A stretch of 64,000 bases of DNA, taken from the sequence record OZ346189.1; one strand, 5' to 3'. Positions 37,687-49,843 of this stretch are shown in pieces. The stretch comes from a phage. Position 1 is the first letter of the stretch. Every line of letters starts with the position of its first letter. The notes beneath the pieces were generated by a model that saw nothing but the letters and a program-made list of their open reading frames with translations, ran no database searches and was not told where the DNA came from. A program made the position numbers and the translations under genes.

Positions 37687-38001
37687 CTACCAGGTTACTG
37701 TCAAGTAGGCAACCGTATTATTTTTCTCTGGGGAGATGCCAACAACATCTACCTGCAGACCTCCTGCCCTTAAATCTCCAACAATGTGAGGGAAGTAATC
37801 TGAGAGATGCGAGGGTAGATTTATCGAAAATCCGCACCCCAGAAAGCCTGCTAACGCTTTATTTTGTATCTCCCCCACAATCGCATCATAAATGGAGTTA
37901 AGCTCGTCAGGGAGCGTTACAGGACGTTTTAGCGCTAACTGGTGTAATTTGTCCTTAGCACTCATTTTCATTTCAGGTCTACCTCTGGAGGTGCCAACCA
38001 C
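37687..38001 (-). CDS. hypothetical protein
   Basis: 104 aa. Confidence 0.45.
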   Translation of the reverse strand: MVGTSRGRPEMKMSAKDKLHQLALKRPVTLPDELNSIYDAIVGEIQNKALAGFLGCGFSINLPSHLSDYFPHIVGDLRAGGLQVDVVGISPEKNNTVAYLTVTW

Positions 38002-38501
38002 ATAAACGGCGGCAAGTCTAAACGGTTTTTCTTATCCCACACAAAATATGCATATGCTTGCCCGTCAGTTCTGCCGTTTGATTGAAATGATGGACGCTTA
38101 GATATTGTGATCACAGTAGTAGGTGCATTATCAAGCCACCATTCAAATCTGGCTTTGCTTTCCAGAAAATTAAGACGCAAAAGCATAATAACTACGTCAG
38201 CATCTTTCAACGCCTTGTCTACAAACTCACGAGCCAGGCTGTATGGTGGGTTGGTGATAATACAGTCAACATGGTTGTATTCTGTATTCAGATAGTCAAC
38301 ACCTTCTTGTATTTCTCCCCATGCAGATCCTAACGGCATACGGGAGTAGAACACACCTGAGGCACTATTCCTGCAAGGCTCTAAGTAGGTCCAGTCTTCT
38401 GGGAACGGAATAAGGTCATACAGCCCTTCTGCACACCACTCCGGTGTCACATACTCATCGTAGGCGTTACGTTGTTCATCAGGTTTTCGAGCACAAGTCA
38501 T
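37968..38501 (-). CDS. DNA N6-adenine methyltransferase (small Dam-like)
   Basis: 177 aa; catalytic motif ITNPPYS (motif IV, NPPY type). Confidence 0.6.
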   Translation of the reverse strand: MTCARKPDEQRNAYDEYVTPEWCAEGLYDLIPFPEDWTYLEPCRNSASGVFYSRMPLGSAWGEIQEGVDYLNTEYNHVDCIITNPPYSLAREFVDKALKDADVVIMLLRLNFLESKARFEWWLDNAPTTVITISKRPSFQSNGRTDGQAYAYFVWDKKNRLDLPPFMWLAPPEVDLK

Positions 38502-38552: not shown

Positions 38553-39602
38553 TTAAGCTTCTTCGACAATTCCTGCACCCAGGATTTTTTCATTGAGCTC
38601 TTTTGCTGTTTTAATAATATTGTCCACCAGACGCTTGCGAGTCTTATCTTTTACCTTAACCTCTTCACCGCCGTTTAGGGTTGTCTTCAATTGGGACAAA
38701 ATGTCTTGAAGTTCAACGACAGAGAATCGCTGCAGATCTTCTGAGGTAATCTCACCTAAGGCAATCTTAACGGTCTCACCACTTTCCATCTGCAGGTTCA
38801 GGAACACAGTGTGAACATCACCTTTCGAACCACCAGCTTTTGCAGATTCAACAGCATGAACTAACTCATCTAAAGAGGTACACTGGTGAATCTCCGGGAG
38901 ACCTGCTTCACCTAACACACCTTCTTCATCACCTTTTGCCAGAAGCTTTTTCGGTTTTTGTCCGTTCTGGATGCGTTGTATGTTACCTTCATCCAGAATG
39001 ATAGCTCCAGTTCGAGCTGCCAGCTCCTCTCCGTCCAACCACACTTCACCACCAGCTGTGATGGATGCGATCTCATCTTCTGTCAGCACCCAACCGTAGT
39101 ATTTTTCGATCAGGCGTTCGAAACGCTTTTTCCAGTAGCTGACCTGAGTATTCATGTTCACACCGTTACCATAAGTGCCACCTTGATAGTAGTGGAACAT
39201 AAATTCTGTGTCCGGAGCCACAGTACGTTCTTTGCAACCCAGCCATAAGATTGTTCCCGCAGAGCAGCACATCCCTTCCGCATGTGCAACAACGCTTGCC
39301 TGAGACTCGCGGAATGCCTGCAGATAAGCCATCGCAATGTGCACGCAACCACCAGGGCTGTTAATGATCACTCGAATGCTTTCTTCAGGCTGAGCCATAC
39401 GGATCGTCTGCAGGCGAGACATATGATCCTGCAGGTCTTCCAAATCGTCGATATAAAGAACGTGGTCAACAACAGGTGTTGGGTAGCTGTATGTCTCCAT
39501 AATACCACCCGGCATACCGAACATTTTATTACTCATAGGTTCGAAACCGTTCTGTTTTTCTTTCATGCCGTGTACCATGGTGCTGCGAGGTGTTAAATTC
39601 AT
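38553..39602 (-). CDS. ClpP-family serine protease with C-terminal extension
   Basis: 349 aa; INSPGG, active-site region MCCSAGTIL and His motif FMFHYYQGG (ClpP IHQP-type); about 150-aa Glu/Lys-rich C-terminal tail. Confidence 0.65.
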   Translation of the reverse strand: MNLTPRSTMVHGMKEKQNGFEPMSNKMFGMPGGIMETYSYPTPVVDHVLYIDDLEDLQDHMSRLQTIRMAQPEESIRVIINSPGGCVHIAMAYLQAFRESQASVVAHAEGMCCSAGTILWLGCKERTVAPDTEFMFHYYQGGTYGNGVNMNTQVSYWKKRFERLIEKYYGWVLTEDEIASITAGGEVWLDGEELAARTGAIILDEGNIQRIQNGQKPKKLLAKGDEEGVLGEAGLPEIHQCTSLDELVHAVESAKAGGSKGDVHTVFLNLQMESGETVKIALGEITSEDLQRFSVVELQDILSQLKTTLNGGEEVKVKDKTRKRLVDNIIKTAKELNEKILGAGIVEEA

Positions 39603-39662
39603 GAGAAATCCTTAATATTGGAAGTTGAAAGCTATTTATTTAAACCTGATTCACATTTACCT

Positions 39663-39974
39663 TTATTTAGCAATCACTAGTGAATACTTACGATTGTCAG
39701 AAGCATCACAGCTCAATGATTGCCAGTCTACCACATACCACGTATCATTGTCAACAATTACTTTATCGCCTGTTCTGTAGCAGGTACTGCTTTCAATAAT
39801 CCGAGACTCGATAAAGAATCTGTGTCGGCGCTCACGTAGCAACGCTAAGTTGATTATATTACCACCGCTGTCCTTGATCCACACATTCTTGGATCCTTTA
39901 TTTGCCAAAATTGTCTCGCCGTTGTAGACAAACAGGCAGTATATTTTATTCAGTTTCTCTTGTATTGTAGCCAT
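39663..39974 (-). CDS. hypothetical protein
   Basis: 103 aa. Confidence 0.45.
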   Translation of the reverse strand: MATIQEKLNKIYCLFVYNGETILANKGSKNVWIKDSGGNIINLALLRERRHRFFIESRIIESSTCYRTGDKVIVDNDTWYVVDWQSLSCDASDNRKYSLVIAK

Positions 39975-40075
39975 ACTGTCCTTCTCTCTGTTTTGTCCGA
40001 TAATAATATCTAAAGCTTACCTATTTGTCAACAACTGTTTTAGATATTTAAGGGTGGAATAACCACCCTTCTGTA

Positions 40076-40864
40076 TTACTCGGAAACAGGGGTCCAAATA
40101 TGGTTTGCACGATCCTCAATAAGATTGAGTGCGATCTGACGACCCAACCCGGAACGAACGACATCGTCTGGACTATCAAAGCTGATCATTCCAACCTCAG
40201 GATCTGGATGACGAGTAAAGAAATCCGTCACCCATGCAAGGCCAGATTTACCAGGGATGTCACGTTGGCTATTATCACCCATAATTACAAGGGTGGCCTG
40301 ATCAGAGATCCTTGTGATAATTGACAACATTTCTTCAGGGTTAGTTTGCTGTGCCTCGTCAATCAGGACAAAGCATCGCTCATCGAAACTACGACCACGA
40401 ATGCTTTCAACTTCACAAATCTCGATACGACTGTTCTGACCGTCTCCCAGCATTGCGGCAAAAGCACCTTTGCCAACACGACGACAAATCGTGTCCATCA
40501 TGCTTCGAAGATAGGGCCACAGTTTCTGCATTGCATTTCCGGGTTTAAATCCTGAAGTCTTTCCTGTCTGGACGTAAGGACGTGCAACAATGATCTTATC
40601 AATCTCGTTCTTACGCAGAAGATCACCTGCATATGCAGATGCCATAAATGTCTTACCGGATCCAAACACACCGTTTACAATAATAATCTTACGTGACCCC
40701 AGATAATCAAGATACTTTTGCTGCTTCTTATTCATTGGTCGGAGAGCTGGAGCGGTGTGCTCTCTTTCGTCAGCAAATTTCTCAGCAGCCTTACGCAGGC
40801 GATCAGATTTGCGAGCCTCTCTAGCTTCATCACGCATGCGTTTTGTTTCTTTAGCTCGACCCAT
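40076..40864 (-). CDS. phoH: PhoH-family ATPase
   Basis: 262 aa; Walker A GVFGSGKTF, Walker B VLIDEAQ, typical PhoH spacing. Confidence 0.8.
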   Translation of the reverse strand: MGRAKETKRMRDEAREARKSDRLRKAAEKFADEREHTAPALRPMNKKQQKYLDYLGSRKIIIVNGVFGSGKTFMASAYAGDLLRKNEIDKIIVARPYVQTGKTSGFKPGNAMQKLWPYLRSMMDTICRRVGKGAFAAMLGDGQNSRIEICEVESIRGRSFDERCFVLIDEAQQTNPEEMLSIITRISDQATLVIMGDNSQRDIPGKSGLAWVTDFFTRHPDPEVGMISFDSPDDVVRSGLGRQIALNLIEDRANHIWTPVSE

Positions 40865-41363: not shown

Positions 41364-41425
41364 TTGGCACCTCCTCTGCTTTCATTACGCTAATTATAAC
41401 CAACTTAACAAAACTTTGTCAACAA

Positions 41426-42463: not shown

Positions 42464-43726
42464 TCAGCAACTACAACTTCCATAGTGCTTAACTCGCTCG
42501 ATAACTTCCGCTTGCTTACCTTTATTGTAAGGACGGGAGTTAGGACTGGAAAGGTATCCAGACACACGTCGAATTACACTGATCGTTCCCTCTTCATGGT
42601 TTCCACACTCTGGGCATACAAAGCCTTTAGCTGTTGCACTGAACTCACCAGAGAAACCACACTTGAGACATTTATCCACAGGTTGGTTAATACCAAAATA
42701 CATAATATGTTTATACCCGAAGTCAACAAGAGCCTCTAAAGCATCCAGGTTGTTTTTCAGGTTAGGTGTCTCTACGTATCCAATGTTGCCACCAGAGGAG
42801 ATCATAGCAAAACCTTCCTCATACTCCCACTTATCAAAAGGAGAGCTATTTATCCACACTGGCTGATGGAAACTGTTGGTGAGATATTCATGCTCGTGCT
42901 TTAACACTTCTGGATATTCACGATCCAGACAGGTTGCAGCTTTATAGCATAGACTCTCAGAAGGAGTGCCGTACAAGCTAAATGCTAGTCTACTTTCCTT
43001 CTTGTATCGCTCACAAGCATCTCTCATGTGCTGAAGGATTCCAAGAGCTAAAGCCTTGTCACCTTCTCTGCCCAAAATCTGACAGGTTTCATACACACCA
43101 ATATACCCAATACTGATGGAAGCGTACCCGTCATAGAAGAGTTTATCAATACTTTCTTCGGGATCCAGGCGAGCAAGAGCGCCTTCACACCACATGATGG
43201 GGTTCTGCCCTGCCTTTGTTCCTTTTAGACGGTTAACCCTTACAAGGTGAGCCTCGTATGCAAGATCCAAGTATTCGTCAAGAACTGCAAAGAAATCAAC
43301 ACATTCCGTCTTAGCTTTTGCCGCAATCATTGGCAGGTTAAGGCTAACAACACCCAAGTTGAATCTGCCGAGGTATTTCTCCTCACCTGTTTCCAAGTCA
43401 TTGTATTTGCTAAGAAAACTCCGGCAACCCATACTCGTTACTTTGCCATCTGTCGAGCCTGTCACTTTACGATTTAGTGGAACAGAAACAAAGTCAGGAT
43501 AAATCCGCTCTGCAGAGCATTCCAGAGCTAATCGTTTCAAATCATAGTTAGGATCTCCGGGGTTCATGTTGACACCCTCTTCTAGGAAGAACAGCACTTT
43601 AGGGAACACAGGTGTGATACGTTCTTCACCAAGACCCATTTTGTGGACTTTCAAGTAATTTTTGGTAATCATTCTACCAAAGACCGAGGTATCCAGTCCT
43701 AAACTTAATGTGATGAATGGAGTCTG
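42464..43726 (-). CDS. nrdD: anaerobic ribonucleoside-triphosphate reductase, exon 2
   Basis: ORF open upstream of first Met to 43762; QTPFITLSLGLDTSVFG...ITPVFPKVLFFLEEG...GDPNYDLKRLALECS matches NrdD core; C-terminal glycyl-radical motif RRVSGY and Zn site CLKCG...CPECG. Confidence 0.8.
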   Translation of the reverse strand, partial: QTPFITLSLGLDTSVFGRMITKNYLKVHKMGLGEERITPVFPKVLFFLEEGVNMNPGDPNYDLKRLALECSAERIYPDFVSVPLNRKVTGSTDGKVTSMGCRSFLSKYNDLETGEEKYLGRFNLGVVSLNLPMIAAKAKTECVDFFAVLDEYLDLAYEAHLVRVNRLKGTKAGQNPIMWCEGALARLDPEESIDKLFYDGYASISIGYIGVYETCQILGREGDKALALGILQHMRDACERYKKESRLAFSLYGTPSESLCYKAATCLDREYPEVLKHEHEYLTNSFHQPVWINSSPFDKWEYEEGFAMISSGGNIGYVETPNLKNNLDALEALVDFGYKHIMYFGINQPVDKCLKCGFSGEFSATAKGFVCPECGNHEEGTISVIRRVSGYLSSPNSRPYNKGKQAEVIERVKHYGSCSC

Positions 43727-44523
43727 CTGTCTCCTCCCTGTGTTTCCACAGGGCCAGACTATCTATTACTCTACTTCAATAAGATAATAACCCTTTATTG
43801 TGAGATGCTTACCTTCGGCATTTCCTTCGATAGCCCTGTGAACGTTACCTACGTTCAAATTTAAGGCTTTTGCACAGGCGTAGAGTGAAGGATATTCACC
43901 CACCAAGATTTTCCCTTTGTATGCCTGCACTTTCCTATAGCACTTACCTGGACAAAGTCCTGTTCGGAAAGCATGTCTCTTATTATCTTCCGGCAAAACC
44001 CACTCTAGGTTAGACGGATGATCATTCAATGTATTGCCATCTTTATGATTCACTTCCCAGTTTTCAGGGTCTTCTGGGACATCTGGCAAACAATACAAGG
44101 CAACAACCCTTGAGGTTTGGATTCGAATCTTTTTACCTTTGTGGTTGAAAGAGTACATATAACGGCGTTTAACATGCTTATTACCTTTTCCATAACCTCC
44201 CCACAATATTGGGTGCAGCATTCCACGTTTTCCGTATACGTTTCCAACTTCATCAATCACATAGTTTGATTCTTCACCATTAAGAATGATCTTTTTCATA
44301 GAGCCTCTCCATTTCGAAGTTAGTATTTCAACTAACCCCTACACTACTTGGTTCAGAAATGTTTGTCAAGCATCTCTGCCTTTCGTTAGTCGTTACAACC
44401 GTTCCAACTCCTGTAAGAACTAGTCACGGGATTGGCATAGCTTTCGCCTTAGCGTTCCCCGTTAGCCGGATTTACCGACCCCTCTTATGAGGTTAGGAGA
44501 GTTTTACAACGGCCAGTTTGTTA
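43727..44523 (-). mobile_element. group I-type intron in nrdD carrying an HNH homing endonuclease gene
   Basis: 797 nt between NrdD-homologous segments; 5' exon ends ...AACGGU (U at -1), intron begins with in-frame UAA, ends ...CAG (G at 3' end); joins ...NTLTSVNG to QTPF... exactly as in uninterrupted NrdD. Confidence 0.65.
43766..44299 (-). CDS. HNH homing endonuclease (intron-encoded)
   Basis: 177 aa; HNH motif NHKDGNTLNDHPSNLEWVLPEDNKRH. Confidence 0.75.
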   Translation of the reverse strand: MKKIILNGEESNYVIDEVGNVYGKRGMLHPILWGGYGKGNKHVKRRYMYSFNHKGKKIRIQTSRVVALYCLPDVPEDPENWEVNHKDGNTLNDHPSNLEWVLPEDNKRHAFRTGLCPGKCYRKVQAYKGKILVGEYPSLYACAKALNLNVGNVHRAIEGNAEGKHLTIKGYYLIEVE

Positions 44524-45384
44524 ACCGTTGACAGAAGTTAACGTATTGATTTGATAGAGCAAAGTCTGCATGCTGTCAAATACGTCTTTATCTGTCATTT
44601 GCATTGCAACAGTCTCAGCATCTGGCAACCAATGTTCCTGGCAAAATTTAAGGTTCTTCTCATAAGTCGCCTCAGCATACTGTGCCAAATAATGGTCAAT
44701 ATGGCTCATAGTCTGACCCCCATATTGAGCACTAGCTACTGCACTAGAGATTTGGCTAAGGATTGTTGTTGCAACCCCTATTGACTTCGGCTTACTGACA
44801 TGGGCGTTACCAATGTTGAATCCGTTTTCCAACATATCTGGATAATTTACCAAACAACAGTTTGTTAACGGACTGATCAAGTAGTCAAGATCATGCACAT
44901 GGATGAAGCCTTTATTGTGCTCTTCTGAGACACGGTCTGGCAGGATCTGTGTTGATGCAAGGTGTTTGCTAAGGATGCCTGCAAGCAGGTCACGATGAGT
45001 GTGTACATGATTGGTAGGCTTATTTGCGTTTTCTTTTGTAAATTCATCACAAGTTCGATCCAAGAAGCCACTAATATCTGCAAGCAGTTTTCCACCTGCC
45101 TCTCTGTTATTATCTCTTGTCTGTCTATACTGGATGTATTCTCTGGCTGCACATTTTAAACCCATATCCATAAGAGCATCTTCAACAAGGATATGGATAT
45201 TTTTTACAGAGATCGTGCACTGGTCGGTTGGTAGATTGTTAGCAACAACTTCATTAACCGCACAAGCGATCCGGTAAGCTTCTTCTTCAGTATGTCCAGA
45301 CTCAAGTAAGGCGGACTCTGCCGCCTTGATCACCTTAATTCCGTTATAGACCTCTTCTCTACCGTCCCGTTTTACAACTTTCAC
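44524..45384 (-). CDS. nrdD: anaerobic ribonucleoside-triphosphate reductase, exon 1
   Basis: 287 codons; ATP-cone MKVVKRDGREEVYNGIKVIKA, conserved DLLAGILSKHLA and HVHDLDY segments; stop codon lies in intron. Confidence 0.8.
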
Positions 45385-46789: not shown

Positions 46790-49105
46790 TTATAGTGCAC
46801 AGCTTTCGCAATACGGATCTTCAACTGAACTATCTGCAATCAAAGGATAGTTCTTTCTGGTTTCATCTTCAGCCTGTTTCTTGGCATGAAGTTCCTCTGC
46901 CAAGGAGTCACCCGCACCAACCCTAGAGTTTAAATAATACCATGTCTTCATTCCGAATTTAGTGGCACGGATAAGGTACCCTAGCTGCTCCTTCATTGAA
47001 ATTTTACCATCTTTCAACTTGGTGTAGTCTATGTATAAATCCGCGCTGATTGCCTGACCTGTGAATTTTTGAATCACAGCATACATATCGATCATGTCGT
47101 TAGTATCAACGTCCCAAGCCGAAGTGTAATACTCTTTCAACTCATCATAGTCAGGAACGATAAACAGCACCTGCCCTTGTGGCGACTTTTTAAAGATAAT
47201 GTGCTCACGGACAGGATAAACCCCGTTAGTGGTGTTTGTTGCCAGCGAAGAGCTTTCATTAGGCATATATGCTTCAAGAACGCTATTACGTAGCCCACCA
47301 TTTTCAACGATTTCTTTACGTAACCCTTCCCAATCCTGTTTAAGAGAAGGATCTTTCACCACGCTATCGACCTCTTTGTTATAGGTGTCGATTGGTAACC
47401 AACCTTCTGGATATTTTGTTTTATGCATCCACTCGCAGACACCACGCTCTTTTGCCAACCGTAAACTTGCCTTATGCAAGCTGTAGCTGTGAAGTTCTGC
47501 AAGATCGTGAACGAGCTGTTTACTTTCAGGAGACCCGTAAGTAACCTTGTGGCTGGCAATAAAATGTGCAACATTGGTAAGGCCAACCCCGATGGATCTG
47601 CGTTTTTTAACTGTGCTTTCCATATTTTCATACGGATATGTCATGATTTCCATAACATTGTCAATCATAAGCACCGTATAGTATGCAACATCCTCATACT
47701 CCTCTGGAGTAACCCTCCCAGCTACAAGAGATGACAGGAAGCACAATGCAACCTCTCCATCATCAGCATCGTACTTGAAGATATTACGCATATCTGAATA
47801 GCCTTTTGTCGGGAGGGCTATTTCTGCACACAGGTTGCTTGAATAGATCACATCTTTAAAAGGTGTATGTCTATTCATCTCATCTGTCCAGTATACGTAC
47901 AGCCTTCCCACCTCAGTGCGCTGCGTGATCAGTTCAACAGCAAGATCTCTAGCTCGGATCCATGTTTTAGGAATACTGTCATCTTTAGCAATACGATCAA
48001 CCTCTGCATCAAACTCCTCTATAGACATGGTGAAGATACCCTCATGCAGTTGAGGCGCGTGCTTATAAGAAACAAGCATCCAATCTAAATTCTTAGCCAC
48101 ACGGTTGATAAACGACCTATTAATACCGATGGAGTAGTCCATGGTGTTGATTCTTTTTGAAGCAACAGTCATAGGGTTTCTCAAACGGATTAGCTCATCA
48201 ATCTGCGGGTCCAGTGCAAGGAATGATACTGTTGCAGAACCACCACGTGATTGTTGTCTGTTCTCCTTAACCCCAGCATCAATACCTCGATAATATGGAA
48301 TCTTACCCATATGTTTAATAGTGTTACCACGAACACCATCGCCTGCAGATCTTGAGGATAAGTAGTAGCCGATACCTGCTTGGTTAACCGTCATTGTGTA
48401 CGCAACTTCACGTGCCACACCAATAGATTTTGCTGTATCGTCAGCTTTTATTACACAACAAGATGCATACCCTGTCTTACCTGTGCGCAGCCCGTTTAAG
48501 TACGGTGTCGGGGCATTGATCTTTAAGTCGGACAGGTAAGTGTATAATTTTACAACATCGTTGATACGACGTTCTTTCGGCATATTCTTCATGACAGCCA
48601 TTGCTATCCCCATAAACATCATCTGGGGAGATTCAAACAAGGTGTCTTTAAGAGTATCCTTGATCCCGTATTTGTCGCGAAACTGTTTAAGGACTGCATA
48701 GCCATAACCGAGATCTTTACTGTGATCAATAACAGTGCCTAAAGTGTTTAACTCGGTAAAGCTATAACCCATATCCTCCCAATACCCTTTCTCAACCATG
48801 TCGTTGTAAAATGATGGTAAGGAAGGGATCTTTGTAAACCCTCCAAAAGCCTCTTTATAAATCTGACCAATAAGAACACGACCAGCCATACGGGAATGTG
48901 CTTCGTCTTTACGGCTAACACAGGAGTCTATGATAGCTTGGTTAACTTCTTTGGTTGTACATCCATCATACAGTCGTTTGTATGCATCCAGTGCAATGTG
49001 TGACCAATTGCCGTTACCGTCGTCACCGAAAATAGCTGCCTTATTTAAACGTTCTGGATCGAATGCCACTTCACATCCGTTGCTTTTAATTACCTTGGTG
49101 ATCAA
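46790..49105 (-). CDS. nrdA: ribonucleotide reductase large subunit
   Basis: 771 aa; N-terminal ATP-cone, catalytic SSNLCAEIALPT, C-terminal redox pair ...CESCAL. Confidence 0.9.
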   Translation of the reverse strand: MITKVIKSNGCEVAFDPERLNKAAIFGDDGNGNWSHIALDAYKRLYDGCTTKEVNQAIIDSCVSRKDEAHSRMAGRVLIGQIYKEAFGGFTKIPSLPSFYNDMVEKGYWEDMGYSFTELNTLGTVIDHSKDLGYGYAVLKQFRDKYGIKDTLKDTLFESPQMMFMGIAMAVMKNMPKERRINDVVKLYTYLSDLKINAPTPYLNGLRTGKTGYASCCVIKADDTAKSIGVAREVAYTMTVNQAGIGYYLSSRSAGDGVRGNTIKHMGKIPYYRGIDAGVKENRQQSRGGSATVSFLALDPQIDELIRLRNPMTVASKRINTMDYSIGINRSFINRVAKNLDWMLVSYKHAPQLHEGIFTMSIEEFDAEVDRIAKDDSIPKTWIRARDLAVELITQRTEVGRLYVYWTDEMNRHTPFKDVIYSSNLCAEIALPTKGYSDMRNIFKYDADDGEVALCFLSSLVAGRVTPEEYEDVAYYTVLMIDNVMEIMTYPYENMESTVKKRRSIGVGLTNVAHFIASHKVTYGSPESKQLVHDLAELHSYSLHKASLRLAKERGVCEWMHKTKYPEGWLPIDTYNKEVDSVVKDPSLKQDWEGLRKEIVENGGLRNSVLEAYMPNESSSLATNTTNGVYPVREHIIFKKSPQGQVLFIVPDYDELKEYYTSAWDVDTNDMIDMYAVIQKFTGQAISADLYIDYTKLKDGKISMKEQLGYLIRATKFGMKTWYYLNSRVGAGDSLAEELHAKKQAEDETRKNYPLIADSSVEDPYCESCAL

Positions 49106-49332
49106 TTTGCTTCCTCCACTTCATTAACGTATTTATCAAGGCAGGTATCAGTATCTTGCTGGATAAAGGTATCCTCTTCTACAGAGATATTTATAATTTT
49201 ACCTGTATACTCGTCATAATAAACATCATCATACATTTTAATATCGTTTGTCAGGCCGTTGAACCAAAGCCAACCAACATACTCTGCCCGACTTGCAAAA
49301 CCAAGATCCTTCCACTTGGAGTTATGACTCAT
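49102..49332 (-). CDS. hypothetical protein
   Basis: ORF track 49102-49410 overlaps upstream gene; internal start MSHNSKWKDLG at 49332 after AAGGTGG SD. Confidence 0.35.
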   Translation of the reverse strand: MSHNSKWKDLGFASRAEYVGWLWFNGLTNDIKMYDDVYYDEYTGKIINISVEEDTFIQQDTDTCLDKYVNEVEEAN

Positions 49333-49342
49333 CTTCACCACC

Positions 49343-49843
49343 TTAGCTTTCAATACCGAATAATTTTTCCAGGCGATGCAGATCTTCAAAATTAAAAGGT
49401 TCATCAACAATATGAATATCTTCAGCCTTTTCAGATTGTTTTGTATACTTTCTTACATTAACACGATCCTCTACAGGGATATCATACGGAAGATCTTGAA
49501 CAAGCATTGCCTCACCGGGTGCTTTATCTACATCTAAAATATCTACACCGTTATACATTTGCGGGTATCTAAAGTCTGCACGCATGACACCAGCAAATAC
49601 ATCTGCCTTTCGATAATGTGTTGGCTTATTTTTGCATCGAACGTTTTTTCCACGAAGAACATCAATACTTTTTAAATCAAACCCTACGGCAAAGAGTGCA
49701 GCTCGGAGACCGTTTCGTGTGCGAACGTTAAACCCGGGAACGGTAGATAGGAAATCCAAAGTAACTGAAATAAATGTCTTTTTAGGAATCATAACATTAC
49801 TCATATCTGTCTCCATTTCTGGCCCACTAACAAAGTGAGCCAT
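49343..49843 (-). CDS. hypothetical protein
   Basis: 166 aa. Confidence 0.45.
   Translation of the reverse strand: MAHFVSGPEMETDMSNVMIPKKTFISVTLDFLSTVPGFNVRTRNGLRAALFAVGFDLKSIDVLRGKNVRCKNKPTHYRKADVFAGVMRADFRYPQMYNGVDILDVDKAPGEAMLVQDLPYDIPVEDRVNVRKYTKQSEKAEDIHIVDEPFNFEDLHRLEKLFGIES

Follow-up and report, generated by a model that had tools for sequence, protein, structure and literature searches.

The 64,000 nucleotides of phage DNA in OZ346189.1 (hereafter the window, in whose positions all coordinates are given) belong to an rV5-like Vequintavirus and carry a gene for a ClpP-like serine peptidase of 349 amino acids (aa). Judged from its sequence and predicted structure, this gene would provide rV5-like phages with a second, non-structural protease that is predicted to be catalytically competent. 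In the reading we favour, which we hold with a probability of about 55%, the product is an active ClpP-fold serine peptidase, made in mid-infection together with nucleotide-metabolism genes, probably ring-forming and cytoplasmic, lacking the canonical docking of ClpX or ClpA, and equipped with a C-terminal domain that finds a partner or substrate. A regulatory, non-structural protease is plausible and fits all of the evidence; that its targets are host proteins is pure inference. The gene and its parts are located as follows.

38553..39602, minus strand: ClpP-like serine peptidase gene, 349 aa (open reading frame, ORF; Pfam CLP_protease; phrog_5410)
39471..39602, minus strand: N-terminal region, residues 1-44, with an FG...YP motif (predicted local distance difference test score, pLDDT, <50 over residues 1-43; columns of the main alignment)
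38958..39470, minus strand: ClpP-fold peptidase domain, residues 45-215 (pLDDT ~90; Foldseek; alignments)
39372-39374, minus strand: codon of pocket position R77 (alignment)
39282-39284, minus strand: codon of pocket position H107 (alignment)
39276-39278, minus strand: codon of pocket position E109 (alignment)
39261-39263, minus strand: codon of Ser114 (alignment)
39192-39194, minus strand: codon of His137 (alignment)
39045-39047, minus strand: codon of Glu186, at the position of ClpP Asp171 (alignment)
38817..38957, minus strand: variable linker, residues 216-262 (pLDDT <50 at residues 223-241 and 257-262; gapped columns ~230-280 of the main alignment)
38574..38816, minus strand: lineage-specific C-terminal domain, residues 263-343, beta-beta-alpha-alpha-alpha (alignment and model)

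The peptidase fold is supported by several comparisons. Pfam CLP_protease matched residues 59-168 (E 2.3e-12; 47.6 bits against a cut-off of 20.2), and the AlphaFold model, with a pLDDT of ~90 over residues 45-215, displayed the ClpP alpha/beta fold with the handle helix present. When the predicted structure was submitted to Foldseek, many ClpP chains were retrieved at E ~1e-10, with a target template-modelling score of ~0.7 and 17-24% identity. Conservation was assessed in a main alignment of 22 long-form homologues (304-355 aa), each encoded in a phage genome or a phage-like contig, and in a second alignment of 13 more diverse sequences, including E. coli ClpP (MG1655 record) and short relatives. 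Ser114 and His137 were invariant in 22/22 long forms and in all 13 diverse sequences, and the long forms also shared the invariant motifs INSPGG, HAEG, CSAGTILWL (containing Ser114) and MFHxYQGG (containing His137). The ClpP-family motifs that an earlier note had read from this DNA are thus confirmed by the Pfam match, by the fold of the predicted structure and by the invariant Ser114/His137. The position of ClpP Asp171 is more variable: the protein studied has Glu186, ICP1 has Asp, and Gln occurs in most of the other Vequintavirinae and of the long-form homologues.

The features through which ClpP engages its ATPase partners appear to be different. Residues 1-44 are predicted to be disordered, are unrelated to the ClpP N-terminus and, in the second alignment, stand in place of the axial loop and helix A; F28, G29, Y40 and P41 within them occupy columns that are invariant or nearly so among the 22 long forms. 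In the pocket, R77, I79, H107 and E109 take the places of E. coli ClpP Y60, Y62, I90 and M92, and three of these four phage residues (R77, H107 and E109) are invariant in the family. From these alignments we infer that the hydrophobic pocket for the IGF/IGL loops of ClpX/ClpA has been lost together with the axial loops. The retained handle helix suggests that the protein assembles into ClpP-like rings. In mid-infection it would act on cytoplasmic proteins or peptides of the host or of the phage, presumably with no canonical docking to host ClpX or ClpA.

Beyond the peptidase domain, the earlier note had described a Glu/Lys-rich extension of about 150 aa. The extension exists, but it is shorter (~134 aa, residues 216-349); its Glu plus Lys content is 24%, compared with 11% in the protease domain, and it is not of low complexity. 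It consists of a poorly conserved linker of varying length, followed by a conserved block of ~85 aa in which F293, E297 and R322 are invariant among the long forms. The C-terminal domain reached a pLDDT of 75-90 in the full model and, when modelled alone, formed two strands and three helices with a pLDDT of 82. It had no Pfam match and no sequence match in the PDB, and a profile search of 1.84 billion representative proteins recovered it in five clusters only, all of them ClpP-like long forms or fragments thereof. PAK_P4, phiPsa267 and T5-like members of the family have no extension. The extension of ICP1 gp211 (326 aa) was considered as a homologue and rejected (hhalign probability 0.2). Since its domain is restricted to ClpP-like long forms and the extension is absent or unrelated in other clade members, the extension is best described as a lineage-specific add-on to a conserved core. 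The domain weakly resembles the Rho N-terminal domain, and the tethered module may recruit a substrate or partner, possibly nucleic acid.

The genomic setting also points away from virion assembly. The focal genes, all on the minus strand, are arranged as follows, from upstream to downstream.

40076..40864, minus strand: PhoH-family P-loop ATPase, 262 aa (Pfam PhoH, E 3.6e-47; phrog_170, E 3.8e-75)
39663..39974, minus strand: 103-aa ORF (ORF list; phrog_5456)
37968..38501, minus strand: DNA methyltransferase-like gene, 177 aa, downstream of the ClpP-like gene (phrog_799, E 8.1e-67)

The ClpP-like gene is surrounded by nucleotide-metabolism genes encoding NrdD, NrdG, NrdAB, ThyX and methyltransferases. 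The position described in the earlier note, near PhoH and among such genes, is borne out by the ORFs, the Pfam matches and the neighbouring genes, with the 103-aa ORF lying in between. A methyltransferase directly follows the ClpP-like gene also in Klebsiella phage KpS8 and Rheinheimera phage Barba8S, and the conserved block therefore runs from PhoH to the ClpP-like gene and then to the methyltransferase. The 103-aa ORF keeps its place between PhoH and the protease gene throughout the Vequintavirinae. Its homologues (the ORF is gp105 of Escherichia phage APECc02) were identified upstream of the ClpP-like gene in 17 IMG/VR loci (L009-L024) and in KpS8 (L004); the ORF directly adjoins the ClpP-like gene in Vequintavirus loci and is one gene apart in KpS8 and other genera. 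A link to anti-defence functions was sought with PADLOC, which returned no match for the protease or the 103-aa ORF.

The gene is already catalogued, and spotting it is no new discovery. The 2.3-kb interval 38553-40864 is 100% identical to APECc02, the closest complete relative that we examined gene by gene, and at least 95% identical to about a hundred other Vequintavirus genomes. The ClpP-like gene corresponds to APECc02 gp104 (100% identical to APECc02 48324-49373), and phrog_5410 (‘ATP-dependent protease’, Vequintavirinae) covers the whole protein (E 7.7e-155; residues 24-345 against profile positions 4-322/323). Its homologue in rV5, gp122 (349 aa), was labelled ‘ClpP (ATP-dependent) protease subunit’ in 2013 (PMC3606486, supplementary table), and the rV5 order gp120 (PhoH-like), gp121 and gp122 reproduces the PhoH, 103-aa ORF and protease order of the window (PMC3606486).

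Expression is consistent with this setting. In ICP1 transcriptomics, the ClpP-like gp211 is assigned to the ‘Middle-late’ class, as are PhoH gp208 and nrdB, and structural genes are placed in the late class. In the window, the ClpP-like gene lies within a leftward nucleotide-metabolism transcription unit, behind two sigma-70-like promoter matches.

41393..41422, minus strand: sigma-70-like promoter, 12/12, upstream of two small ORFs and PhoH (consensus match only)
40003..40031, minus strand: sigma-70-like promoter, 11/12 consensus, in the gap between PhoH and the 103-aa ORF (consensus match only)

From the second of these, the 103-aa ORF and the ClpP-like gene are likely transcribed together, and a promoter is predicted at the equivalent place in phage Gotham. 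Across the region, sigma-70-like sites are no more numerous in total than expected from shuffled sequence. The rV5 authors reported host-type promoters outside the late region, with which the matches in the window fit. This leftward non-structural unit also encodes, a few kb beyond the ClpP-like gene (approximately 35.1-35.6 kb, minus strand), the homologue of APECc02 gp094 and rV5 gp133, a protein of 151 aa for which a single transmembrane segment is predicted. Despite this location, it was reported among the predominant proteins in rV5 virion mass spectrometry.

Relatives of the protease domain were found by tblastn in 1087 phage records, from which the genomic contexts were sampled. Standalone ClpP-like genes in replication or nucleotide modules were observed in ICP1, Pakpunavirus, Otagovirus, Barbavirus, T5-like Klebsiella and Proteus phages, an N4-like vibriophage and the 253-kb Vibrio phage D481, in which the gene is flanked by dihydrofolate reductase (DHFR) and DNA-repair genes. 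A rough, unbootstrapped neighbour-joining tree separated three groups. The first, non-structural group united the rV5-like long forms with ICP1, PAK_P4, phiPsa267, Roth39 and the metagenomic contigs L026 and L051. The second contained E. coli ClpP and short environmental forms, two of them with a ClpX-like AAA+ gene directly upstream. The third comprised long forms of 344-672 aa; in each of the five tested, the gene was followed by that of a conserved 360-aa protein. In these IMG/VR contigs, the 360-aa protein corresponded to phrog_38780 and had no Pfam match.

These results bear on the idea that the gene product is a true Clp proteolytic core, which docks host ClpX or ClpA and redirects ATP-dependent degradation. 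The ClpP fold with its handle helix and the conserved Ser and His would agree with it, and some phage contigs do carry such systems. In the IMG/VR contigs L077:3866-6341 and L084:8465-10420, the gene for a ClpX-like AAA+ ATPase (AAA_2 plus ClpB_D2-small) immediately precedes that of a short ClpP, whose pocket residues are hydrophobic and whose triad contains Asp. These are apparent phage-borne ClpXP pairs and contrast with the rV5-like gene. A ClpX-like gene was found only in these two unrelated environmental contigs and in none of the related loci of the rV5-like clade, and in the rough tree the protein falls outside the clade of E. coli ClpP and the ClpX-linked forms. The NCBIfam ClpP equivalog TIGR00493 scored 33.2 bits against a cut-off of 308.6, with all other ClpP models far under their cut-offs. 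With the axial loop and helix A missing and the pocket residues replaced, we consider a true Clp core unlikely. For a protein that has neither axial loops nor the docking pocket and scores below the curated cut-offs, the database label ‘ATP-dependent Clp protease proteolytic subunit’ is probably misleading.

The earlier note had proposed a prohead protease-scaffold fusion displaced from the structural module. In that scenario, a maturation protease with a scaffold or targeting segment as its fusion partner would use the C-terminal domain to get into the procapsid, where it would degrade the scaffold. The best-scoring curated model for the protein is indeed NCBIfam NF045542 (Clp_rel_HeadMat, ClpP-related head maturation protease), at 60.3 bits, and several PHROGs annotated as ‘head maturation protease’ match the domain (phrog_94, 2976 and 133, all weaker than phrog_5410, in addition to phrog_1684). 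Long ClpP-like forms of putative prohead kind likewise have Glu or Gln in place of the triad acid, and prohead proteases often carry C-terminal targeting segments. However, the NF045542 score is under its cut-off of 120. Since the TIGR00493 score also falls short, this ClpP-fold Ser-His peptidase formally falls outside both curated families.

The head genes of close relatives also argue against a displaced head protease. The earlier note had held that major capsid and portal genes immediately adjacent to the gene would make it an ordinary prohead protease; these were searched for by tblastn, and no portal, capsid, scaffold or sheath gene was found in the window. In APECc02, the head operon lies ~33 kb from the ClpP-like gene, on the opposite strand, in the order portal (Portal_Mu), 139-aa XkdF-type protease, 325-aa Glu/Ala/Lys-rich protein, decoration protein and lambda-E-type major capsid protein. 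The 139-aa protein (gp212, L002:33350-33769) matched Pfam Peptidase_S78_2 (XkdF) at E 8.7e-18 (65 bits against a cut-off of 24) and carries DAHG and GGLSIQ motifs, apparently similar to those that contain the catalytic His and Ser in HK97-type proteases. By its composition, the 325-aa protein is scaffold-like. PAK_P4 shows the same order of portal, XkdF (annotation note, pfam14550), scaffold-like, decoration and capsid genes, ICP1 gp125, a homologue of the 139-aa gene, is a predicted capsid protease, and BASEL phage annotations label the XkdF-type gene ‘prohead protease’. Elsewhere, this gene is misannotated as ‘DNA methyltransferase’ or ‘DNA-binding protein’ in RefSeq/GenBank records and PHROGs (APECc02 gp212, FV3, FFH2, ESCO5, PAK_P4 gp003 and phrog_1530), a propagated error that hides the real capsid protease.

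Virion, expression and gene-structure data lead in the same direction. Peptides from rV5 virions covered 83% of the capsid protein, K5-R22 among them, and therefore no N-terminal delta domain is removed from it. The stored rV5 virion mass-spectrometry table contains no gp122 peptides, and the phi92 head model comprises only the capsid protein, a cement protein and the portal. A scaffold gene nested in the manner of lambda C/Nu3 was considered and rejected, as codons 150-300 contain no in-frame internal start preceded by a Shine-Dalgarno sequence. The ICP1 homologue is co-expressed with nrdB and PhoH outside the late class, the gene lies behind sigma-70-like promoters, clade members in PAK_P4, phiPsa267 and T5-like phages manage without any extension, and the related D481 gene sits beside DHFR and DNA-repair genes. 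Taken together, the capsid-operon, virion, expression, promoter and internal-start evidence makes the displaced fusion quite improbable. In our assessment, the ClpP-like gene is not the head protease, and that role belongs to the XkdF-type gene.

Several points nevertheless weigh against a non-structural, catalytically active ClpP-fold peptidase as we propose it. The best curated match being a head maturation protease, and phrog_1684 ‘head maturation protease’ matching residues 70-256, the protein may descend from a capsid protease or even retain some role in the capsid. Absence from virions is weak evidence, since the head is usually vacated by prohead proteases, and the ‘Middle-late’ class of ICP1 is not far from late. 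The loss of the docking pocket was read from an alignment and not from a model of the complex, and with Gln as the triad acid in most long forms the catalytic mechanism may differ. Our search of the literature, which covered ICP1 gp211, ClpP-like proteases of phages and PhoH in connection with Clp, returned no functional study and no biochemical or genetic data on any family member.

The recurrent neighbourhood of PhoH raises a further alternative, in which the upstream PhoH ATPase and the protease constitute a phage-specific two-component module for ATP-dependent degradation. The PhoH protein of the window matched Pfam PF02562 with 160.9 bits (cut-off 27, residues 41-245) and the NCBIfam PhoH model with 137.9 bits against an equivalog cut-off of 380; it therefore belongs to the PhoH family, though not as an equivalog of the E. 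coli protein. All but one of the Vequintavirinae-type loci have PhoH on the same strand as the ClpP-like gene and 0.5-2 kb upstream of it, as do ICP1, phiPsa267, Barba8S and L026 and L027, two metagenomic contigs of one further lineage; the arrangement is thus seen in five lineages. In phiPsa267 there is an overlap of 8 nucleotides (nt) between PhoH and the ClpP-like gene, and in Barba8S a 54-nt gap. The common expression class of the ICP1 pair would also suit a module, as would, by analogy, the ClpX gene directly upstream of true phage ClpP genes. RefSeq calls the intervening 103-aa ORF a ‘PhoH-like protein’, yet it shows no PhoH, Pfam or NCBIfam similarity.

The linkage to PhoH is far above random placement, but the lineages share ancestry. 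The rV5-like, PAK_P1-like and Felix O1-like phages and ICP1 are distant relatives (PMC4309531), and the synteny may for this reason be simply inherited. There are also exceptions. Contig L022 has no PhoH within 10 kb, although the 103-aa ORF keeps its position upstream of the ClpP-like gene, and PAK_P4 carries a clade member but has no PhoH anywhere in its genome. In T5-like and N4-like phages and in D481, the gene upstream is a different one, for example that of deoxynucleoside monophosphate (dNMP) kinase or DHFR. The ‘253-aa phosphomevalonate kinase’ upstream of the Roth39 gene was considered as a hidden PhoH and rejected, as it is a dNMP kinase with no match to the PhoH hidden Markov model. 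PAK_P4 and these other neighbourhoods exclude an obligatory partnership for the clade as a whole; a facultative one is a possibility. Furthermore, the Pfam and NCBIfam helicase-family matches place PhoH among helicase-like P-loop ATPases and not among AAA+ unfoldases. A dedicated degradation module is accordingly a rather poor prospect. More specifically, PhoH and the ClpP-like protein might form a functional pair, in which the helicase-like ATPase would feed or target substrates, perhaps RNA- or DNA-bound proteins, to the pocket-less peptidase, and the weakly Rho-N-like C-terminal domain of rV5-like forms would tether the peptidase to nucleic acid. This proposal is very doubtful; if true, the pair would give phage PhoH, a widely used marker gene, a concrete biochemical role.

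Finally, an inactive ClpP-like decoy or inhibitor of host proteolysis, which might poison ClpP rings or sequester adaptors and could account for the divergent pocket and N-terminus and the Gln at the triad acid position of many homologues, is highly improbable, because Ser114, His137, INSPGG, CSAGT and MFHxYQGG are invariant across the family and beyond, the pattern expected from purifying selection on catalysis.

Together with its counterparts in ICP1, D481 and PAK_P1-like, T5-like and N4-like phages, the rV5-like gene belongs to a broad clade that provides large virulent phages with second proteases, encoded in their replication modules. If its substrates were found, they could point to a step in host takeover or quality control that therapeutic phage genera share, and work on them could test whether phage PhoH has a link to proteolysis.

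Further observations concern the genome itself. The window is a mosaic Vequintavirus. Its identity to APECc02 is ~94% over 1-25 kb, 98.4-98.7% over 28.5-58 kb and 100% only across 38553-40864; the possibility that the window is APECc02 was rejected on these values. The best 24-kb matches of the window in the phage collection reach ~98%, and the region at 33.7-38.3 kb of APECc02 has no counterpart in the window. The gene for the anaerobic ribonucleotide reductase, nrdD, is split (42464-45384, minus strand) into the following parts.

44521..45384, minus strand: N-terminal part of nrdD (ORF)
43766..44299, minus strand: HNH-type endonuclease ORF inside nrdD (ORF)
42464..43672, minus strand: C-terminal part of nrdD (ORF)

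Relative to the uninterrupted 707-aa nrdD of APECc02, the window contains a 797-bp insertion at 43728-44524, which looks like a homing-endonuclease or intron insertion. In addition, ~20 ‘Campylobacter phage’ records (host C. jejuni) match the E. coli Vequintavirus interval 38553-40864, and two of them, C9 and C11, carry an XkdF-type protease 100% identical to that of APECc02. These matches suggest contamination or mislabelling of those records.

Among known systems, rV5 gp122 (phrog_5410) is the same gene with no structural difference, its family name being derived from homology alone. Bacterial ClpP (MEROPS S14) shares the alpha/beta fold, the handle helix, the catalytic Ser and His in the same motifs and, in the protein studied here, an acidic residue at the Asp171 position. 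Unlike E. coli ClpP, to which it is ~20% identical, the phage protein has a shorter helix B, no axial loop or helix A, R77/H107/E109 in the pocket, an extra 134-aa C-terminal linker and domain, and no Clp ATPase gene nearby. The ClpP-related head maturation proteases (NF045542; Felix O1 gp56 and protease-capsid fusions) have in common with it a Ser-His site on a ClpP fold. As in the gp122 homologue, Glu or Gln at the third triad position is common and C-terminal extensions are frequent among head maturation proteases. In contrast to the NF045542 proteases, the gene is not beside portal or capsid genes, is co-located with nucleotide metabolism (and co-expressed with it in ICP1), and leaves another protease in the capsid operon. 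Parallels are also found in the standalone proteins of other phages, namely ICP1 gp211, PAK_P4 gp168, phiPsa267 gp047, and those of Barbavirus and T5-like phages (phrog_1827), which fall in the same clade of the rough tree as the rV5-like protease. They occupy a similar genomic position in a replication or nucleotide module, often after PhoH, and share with it the Ser-His-acid residues and the non-hydrophobic pocket positions. Most of them, at 180-230 aa, lack an extension, and the 326-aa ICP1 form bears one that is not detectably homologous to that of the rV5-like protein.

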